Positions 3,420 to 63,904 of a stretch of DNA of 64,000 nt are shown piece after piece. The DNA comes from Eledone cirrhosa (lineage: Eukaryota). A program made the translations under genes and the position numbers. The notes under the pieces are model-generated. The model was given only the letters and a program-made list of their open reading frames with translations. It was not told the DNA's origin and did no database searches. The stretch covers positions 46,810,001 to 46,874,000 of the forward strand of contig OZ024751.1 in NCBI GenBank assembly GCA_964016885.1, given 5' to 3'. The first letter of the stretch is position 1. The number at the start of each line of letters is the position of its first letter.

Positions 3420-4393
3420 CTTTTTTCTTTTTTTCTTTTTTCTCTTTTTTCTTTCTATTCTTTCCTCTTTAATGTTTATTTATTTTTTATTTTCTTAGTT
3501 TATAGATACATCTATATTAGGCAGTCTGCTCAGACCGTTGAATACTGACCTCTCCCCCCCCCCCCCCCCTCCCACCTAATTTCTGTATCTTGATCTAAAA
3601 ATGTGTGTGCCAGTGTTTATGTGAGTGAATTAATATCCATGTGCTTATGATTTTATATCCACATATATAAATGTGAGTGGGGGTGTGTGTGTGTTTGTAT
3701 GTTCGTGGTTATGTGTATATTTATGCATATACGCGCGTGTATGTGTGATTGTACGGATATGTGTGAGTATGAAAAAATATATTTATATACTTAATTTCAT
3801 ACTTGTGTCAATACGCATCTTATCTGTGCATTATAAACTTACAGAGACATTAACCTTGAAATTTTGTATTTGCATCCATCCTTTTAGTATGCGTATACAA
3901 ATTATACATACATTTTTGTAAAATATGTGTAAGGGTTTTACATGTATATACACACACGGAACTGCATTTAACCCTTTGTGTTTTCATTGGTCAATTTTTG
4001 TTCCCAAACGGACCTGAAATTTTGAATTGTTGTTATTATCAATAAATATACTTCATTATTTCTGAAGACGGCGTATATATGTGTTGGTATGTATATTTAA
4101 TCTTGATAGTTTGTATAATTTTGTATAATTTTGTACATAGATCTGTTGAATATGCATACCAATTCTAACACATATATATCCTAGAAACGATCGTTAAATA
4201 ATGAACTTTTTTTGTTTAATATAAGGAATTGTTTATTCATTATTTGTTTAATATTTTATCTTGACTCTGTATACCGTTTATCTTTCACCGAAAGTGATTT
4301 TTCATTACATCTCTTCTTTCCATGATATCCGGAATACATTGAGTTCTTCATACGGATTGGACACTACCGTAAATTCTTGGTAGATTTATCTAC
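3420..4393 (+). mobile_element. 3'-terminal ~1 kb copy of the Penelope-like element (3' region + pLTR)
   Basis: Near-identical reverse complement of ~12925-13880, ending GGTAGATTTATCTACA directly into (TA)n. Confidence 0.88.
4052..4205 (+). ncRNA. Type I hammerhead ribozyme motif with long stem II (PLE pLTR)
   Basis: Stem I TTCATTATTT/AAATAATGAA (10 bp), CTGAAGA core, ~115-nt stem II (TATATATGTGTT/AACACATATATA, TGGTATGTATATT/AATATGCATACCA), GAAA-CGATCG-TT with palindromic stem III and GUU triplet. The base of stem II pairs imperfectly. Confidence 0.7.
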
Positions 4394-4438
<45 letters not shown>

Positions 4439-4442
<4 letters not shown>

Positions 4443-4586
4443 AACGAGTAGGACCCCGACGGCTGAGCTCAAGCCGTTTCGACGGCTAATTCTGGACTAC
4501 TCGTTCCTATTACCCACTCTACTACCCTAAGTATTGAGTACTTTGGTGCGTTATGGTCCACCTGGTTCCTTACCACATTTCCTTCG

Positions 4587-4589
<3 letters not shown>
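4439..4589 (+). mobile_element. TA-inserted fold-back element, family A
   Basis: Inverted arm TAGGAACGAGTAGGACCCCGACGG... joined to the tail CCTATTACCCACTCTACTACCCTAAG...CCTTCGTTA, with (TA)n on both sides. Confidence 0.85.
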
Positions 4590-4645
<56 letters not shown>

Positions 4646-4730: not shown

Positions 4731-4740
4731 CATACATATA

Positions 4741-4885
4741 TAACAAAGAAGGTGTGGTAAGATGCCAGGTGGACCATAACGCACCAGAGTACTCAAAACT
4801 TAGCGTAGTAGAGTGGGTAATAGGAACATGTTCAACACCCCGACGGCAGAGCCCCGGCCGCTTCGACAGCTAGGTCCGGACCACG
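4741..4885 (-). mobile_element. Family A element, diverged copy
   Basis: Reverse-orientation match to the family A tail and the GACGGC...GCCG region. Confidence 0.75.
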
Positions 4886-10117: not shown

Positions 10118-10152
<35 letters not shown>

Positions 10153-10207
10153 AAAAGAGTCAGGACCCCGACGGCTGAGCTCCGGCCGTTTCGACAGTTA
10201 GATCAGA

Positions 10208-12257: not shown

Positions 12258-12685
12258 TCAAAATATTAATAAATGAAGACATTCACATAATCAAAATATA
12301 TGTTTTATTATATATATTTCGAAGGTACTGTGCTGTTTTTTCAGTACGTCCTCGTCAGATAAAATACATGAATTGATGTATGACATACCTCAACGGTCTT
12401 GATGGTTCAATTCCAGTATTGGCAGTACTGGAATTGAATCATCAAGACCGTTGAGGTATGTCATACATCAATTCATGTATTTTATCTGACGAGGACGTAC
12501 TGAAAAAACAGCACAGTACCTTCGAAATATATATAATAAAACATATATTTTGATTACGTGAATGTCTTCATTTATTAATATTTTGAATAATATTAATAAC
12601 TCCAGAAAACTTCATTGTAGAGTGCTTTTAATCTATTGTAAAACTATATTCATTGAGTAATCAATGAACCATATTAATCTTTGGT

Positions 12686-17507: not shown

Positions 17508-18908
17508 TTAATTAGGTTTATAATATTTAAATGTTTTTTTTAGTTTATGATTACACGATATAATTAATTCCTGTCGTTTATTTAATAAGATATCCTTAGA
17601 CTTCATTATTTCAAATAGTTCTTGGGAACATAATCTACATTCATTTCTATTATTTTGATAAGGGGTGGCTCTTTTGAGCACACTCCAGGTCAAATCATAT
17701 TTTATATTCTTATTTTTATAACTATTGATTTTTTCAGCTAGAGATGTTGTATTAGCCAGTGCAGCATTTTTAAAACTATGCTTATGGGTATTAAACCTTG
17801 TCTTAAAATTGTTAGAGGTAGCTCCTATATATGAGCAAATAGAATCTTTAGTTTTAACATTACATTTATAGACTATGTTGTTAACAAGACAATTCCCTTT
17901 TAATGGGCAGTTTGCTTTGTTTCTACAGTTACATCCTTTCGTTAATTCTGTATTTGAGGAGATATTATGGTTAATTTGATGTACTGGTGGTATAGTTATG
18001 GTTTTCTTACATTTATATGCATTATATGCACTTATATTTTGTTTTATGTTATTTGTTGTAGAGTATGAGAATTTAACTGTAGACCTATTTAAGATTTGAT
18101 GGTATTTGTGGTTTGGCGGGAAGTTTTTCTCAAGGATATAAAAAAATTTTTTAGCAATATTATCCTTAACTTGTAAATTAAAAGGAGCATTATACCAAGT
18201 AACCCGTCTATTACGGTTTCTATGTTGTTTATTATTTTTATTATTTTTATAGGTTGTATCGTGATTTTTACTAGGAGGATTAATGTTAATGATCTCACCA
18301 CAACTATTTTTAGTTATATTTGTAGATTTAGGTGTTTTATCCTTTTTATTAGGAGTTTTATTATTAATATTTATTAGAGTTGTATGATGAGTAGTTTTTT
18401 GAGAGTTACTATACTTTATATTAGAAGATTTGGTATTTTGGGGTATAGTGTGGGTGGCATTTAGGTGTGTACTTTTCATTTGGTGTTTGTTGGTAATATT
18501 ATGTTGTATGCTTTCAGTATTTTTAGTAGAAGGTATATACTCTAATCTATTTTTGTGGCCACTTCTATCTAGAGCTTCGTTATAGAAGGTCGCATTTTTA
18601 TCAAATACATCTTGGTTAGAAGAAAGGTTAGAAATTCTAAGTGATATATTATATGCAAGGTTTTTAAGGATAGATTTAGGGTGATTAGATTGTGAGTGTA
18701 TGTAATGTAAGTTTTGGTTAGGTTTATGGTAAGGTTGGTAGATACCCGTAGCTAAATCTAAAGTTATATCTAGGAAATTTACTACTTTACTTGTTTTTTC
18801 AAAAGTAATATTAAGATTATAATAGTCTTTAAGGAAAGTTCTAATATGTTTTTTGTTTTTTTCAATTTCTGAAAGGCTAAGGTTGCATTTAACCCTTTGT
18901 GTTTTCAT
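17508..18908 (-). CDS. Penelope-like element protein, N-truncated: RT C-terminus + GIY-YIG endonuclease
   Basis: VNFLDITLDL, YHKPN..YIHSQSNHP, VTWYNAPF, CNCRNKANCPLKGNCL, IVYKC..YIGAT..FKTRFNTH, CRLC..E, LLNKRQEL. The catalytic YxDD is absent (truncated). The first ~8 codons derive from the inverted pLTR arm. Confidence 0.92.
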   Translation of the reverse strand: MKTQRVKCNLSLSEIEKNKKHIRTFLKDYYNLNITFEKTSKVVNFLDITLDLATGIYQPYHKPNQNLHYIHSQSNHPKSILKNLAYNISLRISNLSSNQDVFDKNATFYNEALDRSGHKNRLEYIPSTKNTESIQHNITNKHQMKSTHLNATHTIPQNTKSSNIKYSNSQKTTHHTTLININNKTPNKKDKTPKSTNITKNSCGEIININPPSKNHDTTYKNNKNNKQHRNRNRRVTWYNAPFNLQVKDNIAKKFFYILEKNFPPNHKYHQILNRSTVKFSYSTTNNIKQNISAYNAYKCKKTITIPPVHQINHNISSNTELTKGCNCRNKANCPLKGNCLVNNIVYKCNVKTKDSICSYIGATSNNFKTRFNTHKHSFKNAALANTTSLAEKINSYKNKNIKYDLTWSVLKRATPYQNNRNECRLCSQELFEIMKSKDILLNKRQELIISCNHKLKKTFKYYKPN

Positions 18909-18972
18909 TGGTCAATTTTTGTTCCCAAACGGACCTGAAATTTTGAATTGTTGTTATTATCAATAAATATAC

Positions 18973-19993: not shown

Positions 19994-20521
<528 letters not shown>

Positions 20522-26614: not shown

Positions 26615-26618
<4 letters not shown>

Positions 26619-26881
26619 AGTAAGTAAGACCCCGACGGCTGAGCTCAAGCCGTTTCGACGGCTAATTCAATGCTAATACTTAACTCCCACATCAAGACGT
26701 AAAATATCCACGTATAGATCAACTATATATATATATCAACTAGAAATTCAGAATTAGCCGTCGAAACGGCTTGAGCTCAGCCGTCGGGGTCTTACTTACT
26801 CCTATTACCCACTCTACTACCCTAAGTATTGAGTACTTTGGTGCGTTATGGTCCACCTGGTTCCTTACCACTTTTCCTTCG

Positions 26882-26884
<3 letters not shown>
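26615..26884 (+). mobile_element. Family A fold-back element with captured sequence in the loop
   Basis: Arms as in family A. The loop 26676-26748 is the reverse complement of ~27341-27413. Confidence 0.85.
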
Positions 26885-26934
<50 letters not shown>

Positions 26935-30727: not shown

Positions 30728-30741
30728 CATACATACATACA

Positions 30742-30934
30742 TAACGAAGGAAGTGTGGTAAGGAACCAGATGGACCGTATCGCATCAGAGTACTCGACAC
30801 TTTGGGTAGTAGAGTGGGTAATAGGAAAAGAGTCAGGACCCCGCCGGCAGAGCTGAAGCCCTTTCGACGGCTATTTCAGAAATAGCCGTCGAAACGGCTT
30901 GAGCTCTGCCGTCGGGGTCCTGACTCTTTTCCTA
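30742..30934 (-). mobile_element. Family A fold-back element
   Basis: Tail then hairpin around GGCTATTTC-A-GAAATAGCC, arm ending at CCTA(TA)n. Confidence 0.87.
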
Positions 30935-31412
30935 TATATACATACATATATATAAAATCTTGAAATTATTCATATGACTATTCTTGGGGTATATTTGGAG
31001 CGCTGATTCCAGATATATCAATATAACTAAATATTTTCTTACCGCGTATGTTCAAAACAGCATTAATCAAAACCGCGTAAGATACGGGCCCAGCGTATAT
31101 GAAAAAAAAAATGATCTGTTCAGGTGAGATTTCTTTATTAACAATACGAATTAGCACCTGTGTTAACTTATTCAGCGCTAACTGATGATATAGTGTATGC
31201 ATACTGCATATGGCCATGAAGGGTTAACAAGAGGTTAACGAGAGGTTAACGAGAAGTTAGCGAGAGGTTAGCGAGAGTTTAGCAAGAGGATACAGTATCG
31301 TATGTCTCATAGGAACTGATCAGATCATCTGTATGCCGCAGACGTCGTTTAGTGTTTGAATTTTAATGTATTCCGGAAATCAATCAATCAACTATTATCC
31401 TCATCCTAATCA

Positions 31413-31890: not shown

Positions 31891-32097
31891 TAGGAACAAG
31901 TAAGACCCCGACGGCTGAGCTCAAGCCGTTTCGACGGCTAATTCTGGACTCGAATTAGCCGTCCAGAATTAGCCATCGAAACGGCTTGAGCTCAGCCGTC
32001 GGGGTCCTACTCGTTCCTATTACCCACTCTACTACCCTAAGTATTGAGTACTTTGGTGCGTTATGGTCCACCTGGTTCATTACCACATTTCCTTCGT

Positions 32098-32099
<2 letters not shown>
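31891..32099 (+). mobile_element. Family A fold-back element
   Basis: As above, with a short internal duplication at the turn. Confidence 0.87.
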
Positions 32100-32129
<30 letters not shown>

Positions 32130-32878: not shown

Positions 32879-32911
32879 TTCTTTCTTTATGATGTATTAT
32901 ATATATATATA

Positions 32912-33083
32912 TAACAAAGAAAGTGTGGTAAGGAACCAGGTGGACCATAACGCACCAGAGTACTCGATACTTAGGGTAGTAGAGTAGGTAATGGAAAAAG
33001 AGCCCGATGGCTGAGCTCCGGCTGTTTCAACTAGCTGTCGAAACGGCCGGAGCTCAGCCGTCGGGGTCCTGGCTCTTTTCCTA
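32912..33083 (-). mobile_element. Family A fold-back element (variant)
   Basis: Same tail, hairpin and CCTA(TA)n boundary. Confidence 0.82.
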
Positions 33084-35025: not shown

Positions 35026-35105
35026 GTATGTTGTATATATATATGAGTCCAGAAATAGCCGTCGAAACGGCTTGAGCTCTGCCGTCGGGGTCTTGAACAT
35101 TTTCC

Positions 35106-35138
<33 letters not shown>

Positions 35139-35287
35139 ACGTGTGTGTGTCTGATGGTAGCTAAGATGCTTCCGTTTACTACTCTCTCTCTATATATATA
35201 TAGGAAAATGTTCAAGACCCCGACGGCAGGGGTATTAGTACATCGTATTTGTAGTGATTGTAAAAATGCTGCAAATATTAGTTTGAC

Positions 35288-35803: not shown

Positions 35804-35831
<28 letters not shown>

Positions 35832-35834
<3 letters not shown>

Positions 35835-36039
35835 CGAAGGAAATGTGGTAAGGAACCAGGTGGACCATAACGCACCAAAATACTCAATACTTAGGGTAGT
35901 AGAGTGGGTAATAGGAACAAGTAAGACTCCGACGGCTGAGCTCAAGCCGTTTCGACGGCTAATTCTGGACCCATTAATTCTCGTTCAGAATTAGCCGTCG
36001 AAACGGCTTGAGCTCAGCCGTCGGGGTCTTACTTGTTCC

Positions 36040-36041
<2 letters not shown>
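35832..36041 (-). mobile_element. Family A fold-back element
   Basis: Same architecture. Confidence 0.87.
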
Positions 36042-36095
<54 letters not shown>

Positions 36096-43152: not shown

Positions 43153-43244
43153 TTGTGTGTGTGTGTGTATACACACATCTTTATATACATATATATACAT
43201 GCCGTCGAAACGGCAAGAGCTCAGCCGTCGGGCACTAACTCCCT

Positions 43245-43282
<38 letters not shown>

Positions 43283-46129: not shown

Positions 46130-49100
46130 TAGTAGAATGTAGTATGGGTGGTGTGGTGTAGTGGTATATAGTATGGGTGGTGTGGTGTTGTGGTATATAG
46201 TATGGGTGGTGCGGTGTAGTGGTATATAGTATGGGTGGTGTGCTGTAGTGGTATATAGTATGGGTGGTGTGCTGTAGTAGAATATAGTATGGGTGGTGTG
46301 GTGTTGTGGTATATAGTATGGGTGGTGTGGTGTTGTGGTATATAGTATGGATGGTGTGCTGTAGTGGTATATAGTATGGGTGGTGTGGTGTTGTGGAATA
46401 TAGTATGGATGGTGTGCTGTAGTGGTATATAGTATGGGTGGTGTGGTGTTGTGGTATATAGTATGGATGGTGTGATGTTGTGGTATATAGTATGGGTGGT
46501 GTGGTGTTGTGGAATATAGTATGGATGGTGTGCTGTAGTGGTATATAGTATGGGTGGTGTGGTGTTGTGGTATATAGTATGGGTGGTGTGCTGTAGTGGT
46601 ATATAGTATGGGTGGTGTGGTGTAGTGGTATATAGTATGGGTGGTGTGGTGTTGTGGTATATAGTATGGATGGTGTGCTGTAGTATAATAGAGTGTGGGT
46701 GGTGTGATGTTGTGTTATATAGTATGGGTGGTGTGGTGTTGTGGAATATAGTATGGGTGGTGTGATGTTGTGGAATATAGTATGGATGGTGTGCTGTAGT
46801 GGTATATAGTATGGGTGGTGTGCTGTAGTGGTATATAGTATGGGTGGTGTGGTGTAGTGGTATATAGTATGGGTGGTGTGGTGTTGTGGTATATAGTATG
46901 GATGGTGTGCTGTAGTGGTATATAGTATGGGTGGTGTGGTGTTGTGGTATATAGTATGGGTGGTGTGCTGTAGTGGTATATAGTATGGGTGGTGTGGTGT
47001 AGTGGTATATAGTATGGGTGGTGTGGTGTTGTGGTATATAGTATGGGTGGTGTGGTGTAGTGGTATATAGTATGGGTGGTGTGGTGTAGTGGTATATAGT
47101 ATGGGTGGTGTGGTGTTGTGGTATATAGTATGGGTGGTGTGTGTTGTGGTATATAGTATGGATGGTGTGATGTTGTGGTATATAGTATGGGTGGTGTGCT
47201 GTAGTGGTATATAGTATGGGTGGTGTGGTGTTGTGGTATATAGTATGGGTGGTGTGTGTTGTGGTATATAGTATGGGTGGTGTGGTGTTGTGGTATATAG
47301 TATGGGTGGTGTGGTGTTGTGGTATATAGTATGGGTGGTGTGGTGTTGTGGTATATAGTATGGGTGGTGTGCTGTAGTGGTATATAGTATGGGTGGTTTG
47401 GTGTTGTGGTATATAGTATGGGTGGTGTGGTGTTGTGGTATATAGTATGGGTGGTGTGATGTTGTGGTATATAGTATGGGTGGTGTGGTGTTGTGGTATA
47501 TAGTATGGGTGGTGTGTGTTGTGGTATATAGTATGGGTGGTATGGTGTTGTGGTATATAGTATGGGTGGTGTGTGTTGTGGTATATAGTATGGATGGTGT
47601 GCTGTAGTGGTATATAGTATGGGTGGTGTGATGTTGTGGTATATAGTATGGGTGGTGTGGTGTTGTGGTATATAGTATGGGTGGTGTGTGTTGTGGTATA
47701 TAGTATGGGTGGTGTGGTGTTGTGGTATATAGTATGGGTGGTGTGTGTTGTGGTATATAGTATGGATGGTGTGCTGTAGTGGTATATAGTATGGGTGGTG
47801 TGATGTTGTGGTATATAGTATGGGTGGTGTGGTGTTGTGGTATATAGTATGGGTGGTGTGTGTTGTGGTATATAGTATGGGTGGTGTGGTGTTGTGGTAT
47901 ATAGTATGGGTGGTGTGTGTTGTGGTATATAGTATGGATGGTGTGCTGTAGTGGTATATAGTATGGGTGGTGTGATGTTGTGGTATATAGTATGGGTGGT
48001 GTGGTGTTGTGGTATATAGTATGGGTGGTGTGTGTTGTGGTATATAGTATGGGTGGTGTGGTGTTGTGGTATATAGTATGGGTGGTGTGTGTTGTGGTAT
48101 ATAGTATGGATGGTGTGCTGTAGTGGTATATAGTATGGGTGGTGTGATGTTGTGGTATATAGTATGGGTGGTGTGGTGTTGTGGTATATAGTATGGGTGG
48201 TGTGTGTTGTGGTATATAGTATGGGTGGTGTGGTGTTGTGGTATATAGTATGGGTGGTGTGTGTTGTGGTATATAGTATGGATGGTGTGCTGTAGTGGTA
48301 TATAGTATGGGTGGTGTGATGTTGTGGTATATAGTATGGGTGGTGTGGTGTTGTGGTATATAGTATGGGTGGTGTGATGTTGTGGTATATAGTATGGGTG
48401 GTGTGGTGTTGTGGTATATAGTATGGATGGTGTGCTGTAGTGGTATATAGTATGGGTGGTGTGATGTTGTGGTATATAGTATGGGTGGTGTGGTGTTGTG
48501 GTATATAGTATGGATGGTGTGGTGTAGTGGTATATAGTATGGGTGGTGTGGTGTTGTGGTATATAGTATGGGTGGTGTGTGTTGTGGTATATAGTATGGA
48601 TGGTGTGCTGTAGTGGTATATAGTATGGGTGGTGTGATGTTGTGGTATATAGTATGGGTGGTGTGGTGTTGTGGTATATAGTATGGGTGGTGTGCTGTAG
48701 TAGAATATAGTATGGGTGGTGTGATGTTGTGGTATATAGTATGGGTGGTGTAGTGGTATATAGTATGGGTGGTGTGGTGTAGTGGTATATAGTATGGGTG
48801 GTGTGGTGTTGTGGTATATAGTATGGGTGGTGTGTGTTGTGGTATATAGTATGGATGGTGTGCTGTAGTGGTATATAGTATGGGTGGTGTGATGTTGTGG
48901 TATATAGTATGGATGGTGTGCTGTAGTGGTATATAGTATGGGTGGTGTGATGTTGTGGTATATAGTATGGGTGGTGTGCTGTAGTAGAATATAGTATGGG
49001 TGGTGTGATGTTGTGGTATATAGTATGGGTGGTGTGGTGTTGTGGTATATAGTATGGGTGGTGTGCTGTAGTAGAATATAGTATGGGTGGTGTGGTGTAG

Positions 49101-52100
49101 TGGTATATAGTATGGGTGGTGTGGTGTTGTGGTATATAGTATGGGTGGTGTGGTGTAGTGGTATATAGTATGGGTGGTGTGGTGTTGTGGTATATAGTAT
49201 GGGTGGTGTGGTGTTGTGGTATATAGTATGGGTGGTGTGGTGTAGTGGTATATAGTATGGGTGGTGTGGTGTTGTGGTATATAGTATGGGTGGTGTGGTG
49301 TTGTGGTATATAGTATGGGTGGTGTGCTGTAGTGGTATATAGTATGGGTGGTGTGGTGTAGTGGTATATAGTATGGGTGGTGTGGTGTTGTGGTATATAG
49401 TATGGGTGGTGTGCTGTAGTGGTATATAGTATGGGTGGTGTGGTGTAGTGGTATATAGTATGGGTGGTGTGGTGTTGTGGTATATAGTATGGGTGGTGTG
49501 GTGTTGTGGTATATAGTATGGGTGGTGTGGTGTAGTGGTATATCGTATGGGTGGTGTGGTGTTGTGGTATATAGTATGGGTGGTGTGCTGTAGTGGTATA
49601 TAGTATGGGTGGTGTGATGTTGTGGTATATAGTATGGGTGGTGTGGTGTTGTGGTATATAGTATGGGTGGTGTGCTGTAGTAGAATATAGTATGGGTGGT
49701 GTGATGTTGTGGTATATAGTATGGGTGGTGTGGTGTTGTGGTATATAGTATGGGTGGTGTGCTGTAGTAGAATATAGTATGGGTGGTGTGGTGTAGTGGT
49801 ATATAGTATGGGTGGTGTGGTGTTGTGGTATATAGTATGGGTGGTGTGCTGTAGTAGAATATAGTATGGGTGGTGTGGTGTAGTGGTATATAGTATGGGT
49901 GGTGTGGTGTTGTGGTATATAGTATGGGTGGTGTGGTGTTGTGGTATATAGTATGGGTGGTGTGGTGTAGTGGTATATAGTATGGGTGGTGTGATGTTGT
50001 GGTATATAGTATGGGTGGTGTGCTGTAGTAGAATATAGTATGGGTGGTGTGGTGTAGTGGTATATAGTATGGGTGGTGTGGTGTTGTGGTATATAGTATG
50101 GGTGGTGTGTGTTGTGGTATATAGTATGGGTGGTGTGCTGTAGTGGTATATAGTATGGGTGGTGTGGTGTAGTGGTATATAGTATGGGTGGTGTGGTGTA
50201 GTGGCATATAGTATGGGTGGTGTGGTGTTGTGGTATATAGTATGGGTGGTGTGGTGTTGTGGTATATAGTATGGGTGGTGTGGTGTAGTGGTATATAGTA
50301 TGGGTGGTGTGATGTTGTGGTATATAGTATGGGTGGTGTGCTGTAGTAGAATATAGTATGGGTGGTGTGGTGTAGTGGTATATAGTATGGGTGGTGTGGT
50401 GTTGTGGTATATAGTATGGGTGGTGTGTGTTGTGGTATATAGTATGGGTGGTGTGCTGTAGTGGTATATAGTATGGGTGGTGTGGTGTAGTGGTATATAG
50501 TATGGGTGGTGTGGTGTAGTGGCATATAGTATGGGTGGTGTGGTGTTGTGGTATATAGTATGGGTGGTGTGCTGTAGTGGTATATAGTATGGGTGGTGTG
50601 GTGTAGTGGTATATAGTATGGGTGGTGTGGTGTAGTGGCATATCGTATGGGTGGTGTGGTGTTGTGGTATATAGTATGGGTGGTGTGGTGTTGTGGTATA
50701 TAGTATGGGTGGTGTGCTGTAGTGGTATATAGTATGGGTGGTGTGGTGTAGTGGCATATAGTATGGGTGGTGTGGTGTTGTGGTATATAGTATGGGTGGT
50801 GTGGTGTTGTGGTATATAGTATGGGTGGTGTGTGTTGTGGTATATAGTATGGGTGGTGTGCTGTAGTGGTATATAGTATGGGTGGTGTGATGTTGTGGTA
50901 TATAGTATGGGTGGTGTGGTGTTGTGGTATATAGTATGGGTGGTGTGCTGTAGTAGAATATAGTATGGGTGGTGTGATGTTGTGGTATATAGTATGGGTG
51001 GTGTGGTGTTGTGGTATATAGTATGGGTGGTGTGGTGTTGTGGTATATAGTATGGATGGTGTGCTGTAGTGGTATATAGTATGGGTGGTGTGGTGTTGTG
51101 GTATATAGTATGGATGGTGTGGTGTAGTGGTATATAGTATGGGTGGTGTGGTGTAGTGGTATATAGTATGGATGGTGTGGTGTAGTGGTATATAGTATGG
51201 GTGGTGTGGTGTAGTGGTATATAGTATGGGTGGTGTGGTGTTGTGGTATATAGTATGGGTGGTGTGGTGTTGTGGTATATAGTATGGGTGGTGTGGTGTA
51301 GTGGTATATAGTATGGGTGGTGTGGTGTTGTGGTATATAGTATGGGTGGTGTGGTGTTGTGGTATATAGTATGGGTGGTGTGCTGTAGTGGTATATAGTA
51401 TGGGTGGTGTGGTGTTGTGGTATATAGTATGGGTGGTGTGCTGTAGTGGTATATAGTATGGGTGGTGTGGTGTAGTGGTATATAGTATGGGTGGTGTGCT
51501 GTAGTGGTATATAGTATGGGTGGTGTGGTGTTGTGGTATATAGTATGGGTGGTGTGCTGTAGTAGAATATAGTATGGGTGGTGTGATGTTGTGGTATATA
51601 GTATGGGTGGTGTGGTGTAGTGGTATATAGTATGGGTGGTGTGGTGTAGTGGTATATAGTATGGGTGGTGTGGTGTTGTGGTATATAGTATGGGTGGTGT
51701 GTGTTGTGGTATATAGTATGGATGGTGTGCTGTAGTGGTATATAGTATGGATGGTGTGCTGTAGTGGTATATAGTATGGGTGGTGTGGTGTTGTGGTATA
51801 TAGTATGGGTGGTGTGGTGTTGTGGTATATAGTATGGGTGGTGTGTGTTGTGGTATATAGTATGGGTGGTGTGCTGTAGTGGTATATAGTATGGGTGGTG
51901 TGGTGTAGTGGTATATAGTATGGGTGGTGTGGTGTTGTGGTATATAGTATGGGTGGTGTGTGTTGTGGTATATAGTATGGATGGTGTGCTGTAGTGGTAT
52001 ATAGTATGGGTGGTGTGGTGTTGTGGTATATAGTATGGGTGGTGTGGTGTTGTGGTATATAGTATGGGTGGTGTGTGTTGTGGTATATAGTATGGGTGGT

Positions 52101-52222
52101 GTGCTGTAGTGGTATATAGTATGGGTGGTGTGGTGTAGTGGTATATAGTATGGGTGGTGTGGTGTTGTGGTATATAGTATGGGTGGTGTGCTGTAGTATA
52201 ATATAGTGTTGGTGGTGTAGTA
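46130..52222. repeat. 29-bp satellite array (~6.1 kb, ~210 units)
   Basis: Consensus TATAGTATGGGTGGTGTGGTGTTGTGGTA with a few recurrent variants. Confidence 0.97.
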
Positions 52223-53895: not shown

Positions 53896-53915
53896 TATAT
53901 ATACATATATATATA

Positions 53916-54107
53916 TAACGAAGGAAATGTGGTAAGGAACCAGGTGGACCATAACGCACCAAAGTACTCAATACTTAGGGTAGTAGAGTGGGTAATAGGA
54001 ACCAGTAAGACCCCGACGGCTGAGCTCAAGCCGTTTCGACGGCTAATTCTGTACAGAATTAGCCGTCGAAACGGCTTGAACTCAGCCGTCGGGGTCTTAC
54101 TTGTTCC

Positions 54108-54108
<1 letters not shown>
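53916..54108 (-). mobile_element. Family A fold-back element
   Basis: Hairpin centred on TCTGTACAGA with the same boundary. Confidence 0.88.
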
Positions 54109-54142
<34 letters not shown>

Positions 54143-57201: not shown

Positions 57202-57753
57202 GATGAAAGAGAGAGAGAGCATGCAAGTGTGTATGTGTGTATGAGTGTGTGTGTGTGAGTGTGTATGTGTGAGTGTGTGTGAGTGTGTGTGCGTGAGTGA
57301 GTGTGTGTGGGTGAGTGCGTGTGTGAGGGCGTGTGTGTGAGTGTGTGTGTATATATGTGTGTGTGTGTGAGTGTGTGTGTCAGGGCGTGTGTGTGTAAGG
57401 GCGGGTGTGTGTGTATGTGTGTATATGAGTGTGTGTGTGTGTGTGTGTGAGTGTGTGTATGTGAGTGTGAGTGTGTGTGAGAGGGTGTGTGTGTGAGTGT
57501 GTGTGTGTATATGAGTGTGTGTATGTGTGAGTGTGTGTATGTGTGTGTGTGTGTGTGAGGGCGTGTGTCTGTGTGAGAGTGTGTGTGTATGTAAGTGTGT
57601 GCGTGTGTGTGTCATCATCTTACAGTGAGTTGAATAGAGAATAGGAAGAAGTGAGAAAATGTTATTGGAATAGAAACTGGAGAGGAAGAGGTGAATATGG
57701 AATGTGACGTGAAAGAATAATTCTGACTCCAGAGTTGTGAATGGAGTCCTTGT

Positions 57754-58114
57754 TATATTTAATTGTTTCTACTTTTGGCACAAGGCCAGCAAACACCCAG
57801 TACATTACTGGTACTTTATTTTATCGACCCCGTAATGGTGAAAGGCAAAGTTAACCTCGGCTGGATTTGAACTCAGAATGGCAAGGGCCGTAACTCCATG
57901 CGTCAAAGCATGGTATCCGACCCTCTTGATATATTTAATTGTTTCTACTTTTGGCACAAGGCCAGCAATCACTCAGTACATTACTGGTACTTTATTTTAT
58001 CGACCCCGTAATGGTGAAAGGCAAAGTTAACCTCGGCTGGATTTGAACTCAGAATGGCAAGGGCCGTAACTCCATGCGTCAAAGCATGGTATCCGACCCT
58101 CTTGATATATTTAA
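57754..58114 (-). mobile_element. Tandem dimer (176-bp period) of 5'-truncated family 1 SINE
   Basis: AATTGTTTCTAC at 57761 and 57937. Both units end at CCGACCCTCTTGATATATTTAAT. Confidence 0.88.
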
Positions 58115-58810
58115 TAAGTTTGTGTCATATACCAGCTTAATCAGAGCTGACTTAGGAGTTAAACCTACCACAAACACATATTAAGTATGCAGCAACTTAA
58201 CACACACACACATACACACATACACATATATATACACACACATACACACACACACATACACATATATATATATACACACATACACACACACACACATACA
58301 TACACACATACACACACAAACACACATATATATACACACACATACACACACATACACACATATACACACATACAAACACACATACACACACACATACACA
58401 CATATATACGCAGATACACACAGATACACACACATACACACACATACACACACATACACACACACACACATAAACACATGCACACACATACACACACATA
58501 CACACATACACACACATACACACACATACACACATACATACACACATTTATACACACATACACACATACACACACATACGCTCATTCATACATAAACAAA
58601 ATATAGTTAGTAAACTTCTTCATTTAACTCTTCTTCTTCTTCTTCTTCTTCTTCTTCTTCTTCTTCTTCCATCGCCACCCATCATTGCCCCCACCCGGGA
58701 AGGATGCAATGGGGCTGCTCCATTGAAAGTAAAGGTGGGGTGAGGGGTGTTATTGGGGTGACCCCCGAGAGAGGAGAACAGTTTATTTATTTATCTATTT
58801 ATTTTTATAG

Positions 58811-63664: not shown

Positions 63665-63696
<32 letters not shown>

Positions 63697-63697
63697 C

Positions 63698-63818
63698 AGG
63701 AAAATGTTAAAGACCCCGGGGTCTTTAACATTTTCCTATTACCCACTCTACTACCCTAAGTATTGAGTACTCTGGTGCGTTATGGTCCATCTGGTTCCTT
63801 ACCACACTTCCTTCGTTA
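63698..63818 (+). mobile_element. Minimal family A fold-back element
   Basis: Perfect palindrome AGGAAAATGTTAAAGACCCC|GGGGTCTTTAACATTTTCCT followed by the tail. Confidence 0.87.
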
Positions 63819-63904
63819 TATATATATATATGTGTGTACACGCACATACATACATATATATATATATATATACATAATTATGTATATATATATATGTGTG
63901 TGTG

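Follow-up and report, generated by a model that had tools for sequence, protein, structure and literature searches.

The DNA analysed in the present study, which we call the window, is a stretch of 64,000 nucleotides from Eledone cirrhosa (contig OZ024751.1, positions 46,810,001 to 46,874,000 of the forward strand), and all plain coordinates below refer to it. The insert at 63698 is a stub, in mirror-image form, of a Hydra-type Penelope-like retroelement (PLE), and both of its arms stop at the predicted hammerhead cut. It lies in a (TA)n target whose left side occupies 63672..63696 (at 63697 this copy has C and the others T) and whose right side occupies 63820..63831. An inverted arm on the minus strand (63698..63717) reaches from the short fixed end (+20, with G1.1 as +1) back to G1.1, the first base past the predicted cut. 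On the plus strand follow a forward arm (63718..63737), which is the pLTR part with the 3' strand of stem I and the next bases, and a one-sided tail of about 82 nt (63738..63819), which in the full element runs on into the 5' UTR and ORF (L174:4905-4990). The two arms form a perfect 20+20 palindrome (63698-63737) centred between 63717 and 63718; an earlier, sequence-only reading had reported the turn at GACCCC|GGGGTC, right after GUC, and it was found exactly there. In the hammerhead register this fold-back centre (63717..63718) is the predicted cleavage site C17|G1.1, and it corresponds to the bond 3' of GTC in the read-through copies of the window, for example at 20084-20095. Since C17 and G1.1 together make CG, a microhomology, the position of the junction in this copy is ambiguous by one base in either direction. 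The copy belongs to a minor subfamily, the nearest long relatives of which have U3.G8 or U3-A8 cores.

Results

The repeat family to which the insert belongs, family A, has 14 insertions in the window, with the longest arms reaching -45. The block GAAAC-GGC-N-GAGCTC-N-GCC-GTC-GGGGTC, previously described as conserved, is present in the other family A copies of the window. On the plus strand, the fold-back at 19995..20190 represents the common class, with arms ending at -41 (with an extra base matching G) and -35; that at 4440..4590 has a tail-bearing arm that begins downstream of the site, that at 26617..26886 has unrelated sequence between its arms and that at 31893..32101 carries a short duplication at the junction. 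Further fold-backs lie on the minus strand at 30741..30935, 32910..33082, 35830..36042 and 53914..54110. The solo copies are those at 35045..35108 (+), which begins with an extra G (35045) ahead of the likely capped start, the A at -41 (35046); at 4739..4880 (-), with a tail and of a diverged subfamily; at 10150..10207 (-), without a tail; and at 43200..43247 (+), a diverged arm. In addition, a short arm at 35202..35230 (-) ends at -8.

Several other repeats were seen in the window. A second hammerhead family has the canonical CTGANGA at 12486, 32218 and 35694 (+) and at 12358, 36286, 33445 and 44096 (-), a stem I that is AT-rich and a stem III that is palindromic (TATATA or TGCGCA); its copies at 12358 and 12486 form a back-to-back pair, and it offers a ready test set for a count of junctions at a cut site. 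A frame of 467 aa on the minus strand (17508-18911) holds the C-terminal part of the RT and the GIY-YIG domain of another Hydra-type element, together with a long low-complexity insert, and gave no Pfam match. Three near-identical repeat copies at 4062 (+), 18983 (+) and 13259 (-) carry CTGAAGA and then a stem-like stretch, and are possibly the pLTR of that element. A dispersed repeat, presumably SINE-like, shares GGGGTC by chance (3081 and 43580 on the plus strand; 32765, 33177, 57831 and 58007 on the minus strand) and forms a 176-bp tandem pair at 57749-58115. A 6-kb array at 46140-52218 is made of 210 copies of a 29-bp unit with 93% matches and extreme GC skew. Pfam gave no match in 5 ORFs of the window, and the best 150 of the 374 Rfam rows for the window were microsatellite-driven, miRNA-like matches below the gathering score.

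Searches of the animal's own genome led to a whole element (L174) consisting of pLTR, ORF and pLTR, in which the unit between the hammerheads is 3118 nt. The tail of the family A stubs is the sequence past the upstream pLTR, leading into the ORF. The single ORF (L174:5080-7236) encodes 719 aa, an RT followed by a C-terminal GIY-YIG domain, with FDIES, YRDD and VIY..YIG recognised by eye. Clade motifs were likewise matched by eye, to the definition and the supplement alignment in the available part of PMC8557442. The protein has DKT in place of DKG (HSDKTGN), RWR where the Hydra clade has RWK, a CxCX5C linker (CNC-x5-C), and CxxC (CNLCSEE) and CxH (LLNK..CKH) motifs flanking E and N; it is without CCHH and has one Cys between VIY and YIG. 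Protein search returned 2054 relatives, mostly unnamed, the best of which also carries PF01541, while Pfam gave no match for 3 element ORFs and a PDB sequence search with the element protein matched no solved structure. The inspected fold-backs at the cut site had (TA)n on the short side in 30/30 and on the tail side in 29/30. These motifs and this target identify family A as the terminal part of a Hydra-type PLE that inserts into (TA)n. Membership of the Neptune or Nematis clade was considered and rejected in view of the Hydra motifs of the protein. A non-LTR retrozyme, with tandem non-coding units that each hold a hammerhead, was rejected as well, the copies being dispersed stubs of a coding element. 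A few fold-backs depart from the one-sided tail rule and bear a long tail on both arms (C11:24711758-24711807 and C6:12444671-12444733 in G000), of which L020 is a long example.

The ribozyme core was examined with a pattern in which positions 3, 7 and 8 were free and positions 4-6, 9 and GAAA were fixed, and which gave 5447 matches. Among the first 100 of these long arms, counted by hand, position 3 was T in 77, C in 21 and G in 2, and position 8 was A in 97 and G in 3, so that the 3-8 pair was U3-A8 in 74, U3.G8 in 3, C3.A8 in 21 and G3.A8 in 2. The canonical C3-G8 core (CUGANGA) occurred in 0/100 of these arms. Position 7 varied (G, T, C or A) while position 8 was A in the 97 arms, which is the hammerhead pattern; G10.1 was present in 98/100, giving G10.1-C11.1 as in hammerheads. 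The sequence-only reading had stated that the CTGANGA half is missing here and had proposed a search for GACCCC-CTGANGA in longer copies. No arm of the window indeed reaches the 5' half of the ribozyme, and the long copies do supply the stem I partner ACCCC and a core in register, but the missing half has the U3-A8 core and not CTGANGA, with no arm among the first 100 combining C3 and G8. U3-A8 is a natural and active hammerhead variant (PMC3088659, as far as its available text goes), already known from the Schistosoma PLE Cercyon (PMC4209133, available part).

Three other arrangements of the core were tried and rejected. A type II arrangement, in which the core would lie 3' of the cut, is contradicted by the tail, which holds no core; a deletion of N7 in the C3 register by the free variation of position 7 and the predominance of T3; and the minimal PLE hammerhead (min-HHR) by a stem III of 5-6 bp without an extra base between 9 and 10.1.

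The helices comprise a stem I of 5 bp, a stem II of 7-9 bp whose loop holds about 35 bases, and a stem III of 5-6 bp with a palindromic loop; the palindrome formerly assigned to stem III thus belongs to its loop, the stem being an ordinary helix. This three-helix structure, open at stem I (type I), was paired in 91% of 300 cells across 15 diverse copies. Four full-length monomers were folded, and the minimum-energy fold was the full three-helix hammerhead in one (L174) and nearly so in another (L135), though not in L020 and L184, with folding z-scores from -2.6 to +0.4. Covariation was not above shuffles: double changes occurred in 3 pairs, each of them in stem II, a level reached in 39/500 shuffles, and stem I was invariant. 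Rfam gave 0 matches to the full motif at E up to 10 (L174:4760-5000). Minor subfamilies with U3.G8 (L121, L140 and L184) are possible intermediates between C3-G8 and U3-A8, and in L184 stem II shows compensatory changes.

The 3' strand of stem II can also pair with the 5' strand of stem III, giving a 6-bp hairpin at -30 to -15 (e.g. 20060-20075). In folding, this hairpin was the preferred structure of an RNA beginning at the likely start site, and it could possibly act as a switch that keeps the ribozyme off.

Since a single copy that turns on CG may be due to a micro-palindrome, a count of copies truncated at this base had been proposed, and it showed clear enrichment. Exact folds at the cut site, the position of which is ambiguous by one base, gave 106 matches genome-wide (two of the listed rows being one locus), and 30/30 inspected matches were genuine fold-backs in (TA)n. 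At a matched CG that lies three bases further upstream there was 1 match, drawn from 30 matches in which both arms reach at least 2 bases past the site with a middle of up to 14; the difference is about hundredfold, somewhat overstated as the matched control holds more CpG and leaves out the GCTGTC variant. Reversed control patterns gave 0 matches.

The enrichment was also found where CG plays no part. Fold-backs with 1-30 bases between the arms gave 925 matches genome-wide. Among the first 100 of them, after two ambiguous rows near the site were dropped, both arms stopped at G1.1 with 1-6 extra, mostly A/T bases in 21 and at -2 to -5 with 1-6 extra bases in 0; one arm ended at -1 in 1 row, and both ended at -1 with at least 2 added bases in 0. 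In ten rows of the same 100 the inverted arm is longer, and these are compatible with either -1 or +1. Because the arms of the insert class stop at G1.1 with 1-6 bases between them, the CG micro-palindrome is ruled out for this class. Short fold-backs behaved likewise: among the first 100 of 1192, both arms were at +1 in 19 and one arm in about 18 more, and none was symmetric with an insert at +2 or +3. For solo and short-arm copies, in which raw counts are inflated by overlapping starts, only distinct listed loci were counted; 21 of 58 started at +1, 5 at +2, 4 at -2 and 3 at -3 (p=0.002 and 0.001). The pure solo copies among them had 14 starts at +1 and 3 at the next best position. The peak is therefore independent of both CG and fold-back, as it is present with inserts and in solo copies. 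These proportions are hand counts on the first 100 listed rows, nearly all of which lie on contig C1, except for the exact site folds. By extrapolation, both arms stop at the site in about 300 copies (106 + about 21% of 925), compared with 18,490 read-through copies plus about 6,200 of a variant that the pattern misses (37/100 listed rows of 16,813). The cut-site class thus makes up about 1% of family A copies.

The subfamilies of family A provide a natural control for the core. It is chiefly the CTACTCG subfamily that carries the C3.A8 mismatch (13 of its 21 rows, about 60%, among the listed long arms), whereas long copies of TTACTGG and TTACTTG have U3-A8 in 11/11, with one C3 row of TTACTTG type among the listed arms. 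The CTACTCG subfamily is under-represented at the cut site, with 14/89 exact site folds vs 35/96 listed read-through rows (p=0.0015) and, when the insert class is added, 16/106 site rows (p=0.0006); rows of other subfamilies were dropped (11/100 at the site and 4/100 in read-through). The read-through denominator was 100 of 16,813 rows, the set of 18,490 matches being set aside as it misses the GCTGTC variant. TTACTTG, with the same stem III as CTACTCG, had 23 site folds vs 12 listed read-through rows. In the GCTGTC variant stem III is weaker, but the subfamily that carries it shows no depletion at the site. Subfamilies of ATAC type form about 1/4 of the listed read-through rows but 0/100 of the listed exact site folds; three of their long copies have U3-A8 or U3.G8, and this absence runs against the reading that cut RNA was copied, although some ATAC-type solo or asymmetric copies do start at +1. 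Besides the core, the subfamilies may differ in age or other traits.

For the upstream ends, 197 arms were collected from the window itself, from 200 kb of DNA flanking it and from 80 stretches that surround read-through copies; most of the tail-bearing arms were chosen to pass -6, which makes this sample uninformative on the cut site itself. At or before -47 ended 183/197 arms, mostly at -30 to -47 with a mode at -41, and 14 went further. Position -41 is the A of TTAGTC, inside loop II, a sequence that resembles the initiator consensus; the bases at +28 to +32 from the likely start did not match the consensus of a downstream promoter element. Copying of a cap would give an extra G at the RNA 5' end. 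An unexplained G precedes -41 in 17/24 arms vs 8/37 at neighbouring positions (one duplicate locus dropped). The cap G is weak in solo copies, where the base before the A at -41 was G in 2, C in 2 and A in 1 over about 38 listed loci, and the tally in 100 listed rows (47 G, 43 C and 10 A) is confounded by microhomology with the partner arm and by a subfamily variant. Taken together, -41 is likely a capped transcription start, judging from the genomic copies. At some junctions near -41 to -46 (L200, L247, L234, L172 and L003), A or T runs lie between the arms, which suggests long tails added on run-off.

Discussion

In the present study, we not only confirmed the mirror-image copy at 63698 but also placed it in a class of copies that stop at the same base throughout the genome. 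The hundreds of junctions, the control site and the subfamily with the core mismatch point to a cut RNA that was used as template in about 1% of copies. We consider it probable that this minority was made from RNA that had cleaved itself at the hammerhead. The earlier proposal that the template of the 63698 copy owed its 5' end to ribozyme self-cleavage gains support from the enrichment and from the core in register; this copy probably comes from self-cleaved RNA itself and is a candidate member of the cut-site class.

Two RNA 5' ends would account for the copies, a common capped start near -41 and a rarer cut at G1.1. A start in loop II would leave the core half outside the transcript, and for this reason most copies would look like half-hammerheads and RNA from this start would be unable to cut in cis. 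The cut at G1.1 would be possible in RNA that spans the whole pLTR, and the cut RNA could be either a read-through transcript from upstream or a small 3' piece off the downstream pLTR. After the model of the anole element in vitro, both target strands would be cut and extended, with two internal RT starts setting the tail; under such double priming both cDNAs would run to the RNA 5' end and then be joined.

The strongest alternative, which we regard as unlikely, is that the RT halts on uncut RNA, either at the foot of the stem III hairpin or at the three-way junction, adds a few bases and is released. In favour of this, few junctions fall within stem III (30 matches) and many lie directly 3' of it, the stem begins two bases away from the site, and the exact CG folds and the 10 rows with a longer arm fit an end at -1. 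However, a stall should leave C17 on the arm, at -1, and the 21/100 listed insert rows have both arms at +1. CTACTCG (14 to 35) and TTACTTG (23 to 12) gave different outcomes at equal stem III, which argues against a hairpin stall, and so does the undepleted subfamily of the GCTGTC variant, despite its weakened stem III. Moreover, the preferred hairpin of start-site RNA, at -30 to -15, is away from the site.

It is much less probable still that the RNA end at G1.1 is real but was produced by a protein nuclease or by a second, minor start of transcription. The data give a defined end and not its chemistry, and a few rows do have an extra G before G1.1. Nevertheless, the end lies exactly at the scissile bond of the hammerhead, the extra bases are for the most part A/T whereas -41 shows an excess of G, and the subfamily with a broken 3-8 pair is depleted. 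An origin at the DNA level, by end-joining at the CG micro-palindrome or by later collapse of longer palindromes at their centre, would suit a 63698 copy that turns on CG and a family in which many junctions use microhomology, but it is the least credible of all and is largely refuted already by the insert, matched-CG and solo counts, the matched CG three bases away giving 1 match vs 106 and the peak persisting with inserts and in palindrome-free solo copies (14 at +1, next 3).

The preferred reading, that cut RNA was copied, has some consequences. A share of about 1% fits a working ribozyme that is not the main route of spreading. We go further, with no more conviction for than against, in suggesting that the family holds a fossil cleavage assay, in which the share of copies stopping at the cut follows the intact 3-8 pair while the promoter splits its own ribozyme. 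If this is true, junction counts could rank the in vivo activity of ribozymes across PLE families from DNA alone. The results yield exact wild-type and natural-mutant constructs, and the counting method may be used on any PLE-rich assembly. In the literature covered, outside which most subscription journals fall, we found no junction count at a PLE cut site. Whether PLE hammerheads cut in vivo and the cut RNA is copied is stated to be open in the available parts of PMC4209133 and PMC8557442, the former noting that in vivo evidence for these hammerheads is absent.

Among known systems, the C-terminal EN+ PLEs of the Hydra clade (PMC8557442, available part) are the nearest relatives. They share with family A an ORF with RT and GIY-YIG, the DKT, CxCX5C and CxxC/CxH motifs, the (TA)n target, the pLTR hammerhead and the inverted 5'-truncated copy with a one-sided tail, the last two features being typical of these elements. 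Family A differs in its U3-A8 core, a loop II of about 35 nt and a tail of about 82 nt instead of 30-40; the hammerhead of Hydra-1_Obim, as given in a supplement row, is also different in sequence, which makes family A a separate family. In its available part, that study contains no junction counts at the hammerhead cut site that we could find. On these comparisons, family A is new as a family, whereas its clade and its core variant are known. Like the metazoan PLE hammerheads and Cercyon (PMC4209133, available part), its ribozyme is of type I with a stem I of 5 bp, an irregular base in a long stem II, G10.1-C11.1, a palindromic loop III and the U3-A8 covariant; in contrast to those hammerheads, it has a full stem III of 5-6 bp and is thus not the minimal, dimer-dependent form.

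In Penelope of D. virilis (PMC2377424, available part), transcription also starts within the pLTR at an initiator, whereas the likely start of family A, as judged from DNA, would lie in loop II and split the ribozyme. Poseidon from Anolis (PMC11167929, available part) has a hammerhead in its pLTR as well; its insertion likewise involves cutting and extension of both strands of the target, and its tail is set by two internal start sites of the RT. Hammerhead cleavage of the anole PLE depended on the protein and was dispensable for insertion in vitro, and RNA-seq showed no reads with an end at its site, neither beginning nor finishing there, whereas the genomic copies of family A pile up at theirs. 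A parallel in method is the HDV-like ribozyme of R2 (PMC3774820, available part), in which the cut was likewise read from 5' junctions shaped by bases added on run-off and by microhomology. R2 belongs to another ribozyme class and another kind of element, and its cut makes the normal 5' end, whereas in family A the cut-site class is about 1% of copies.
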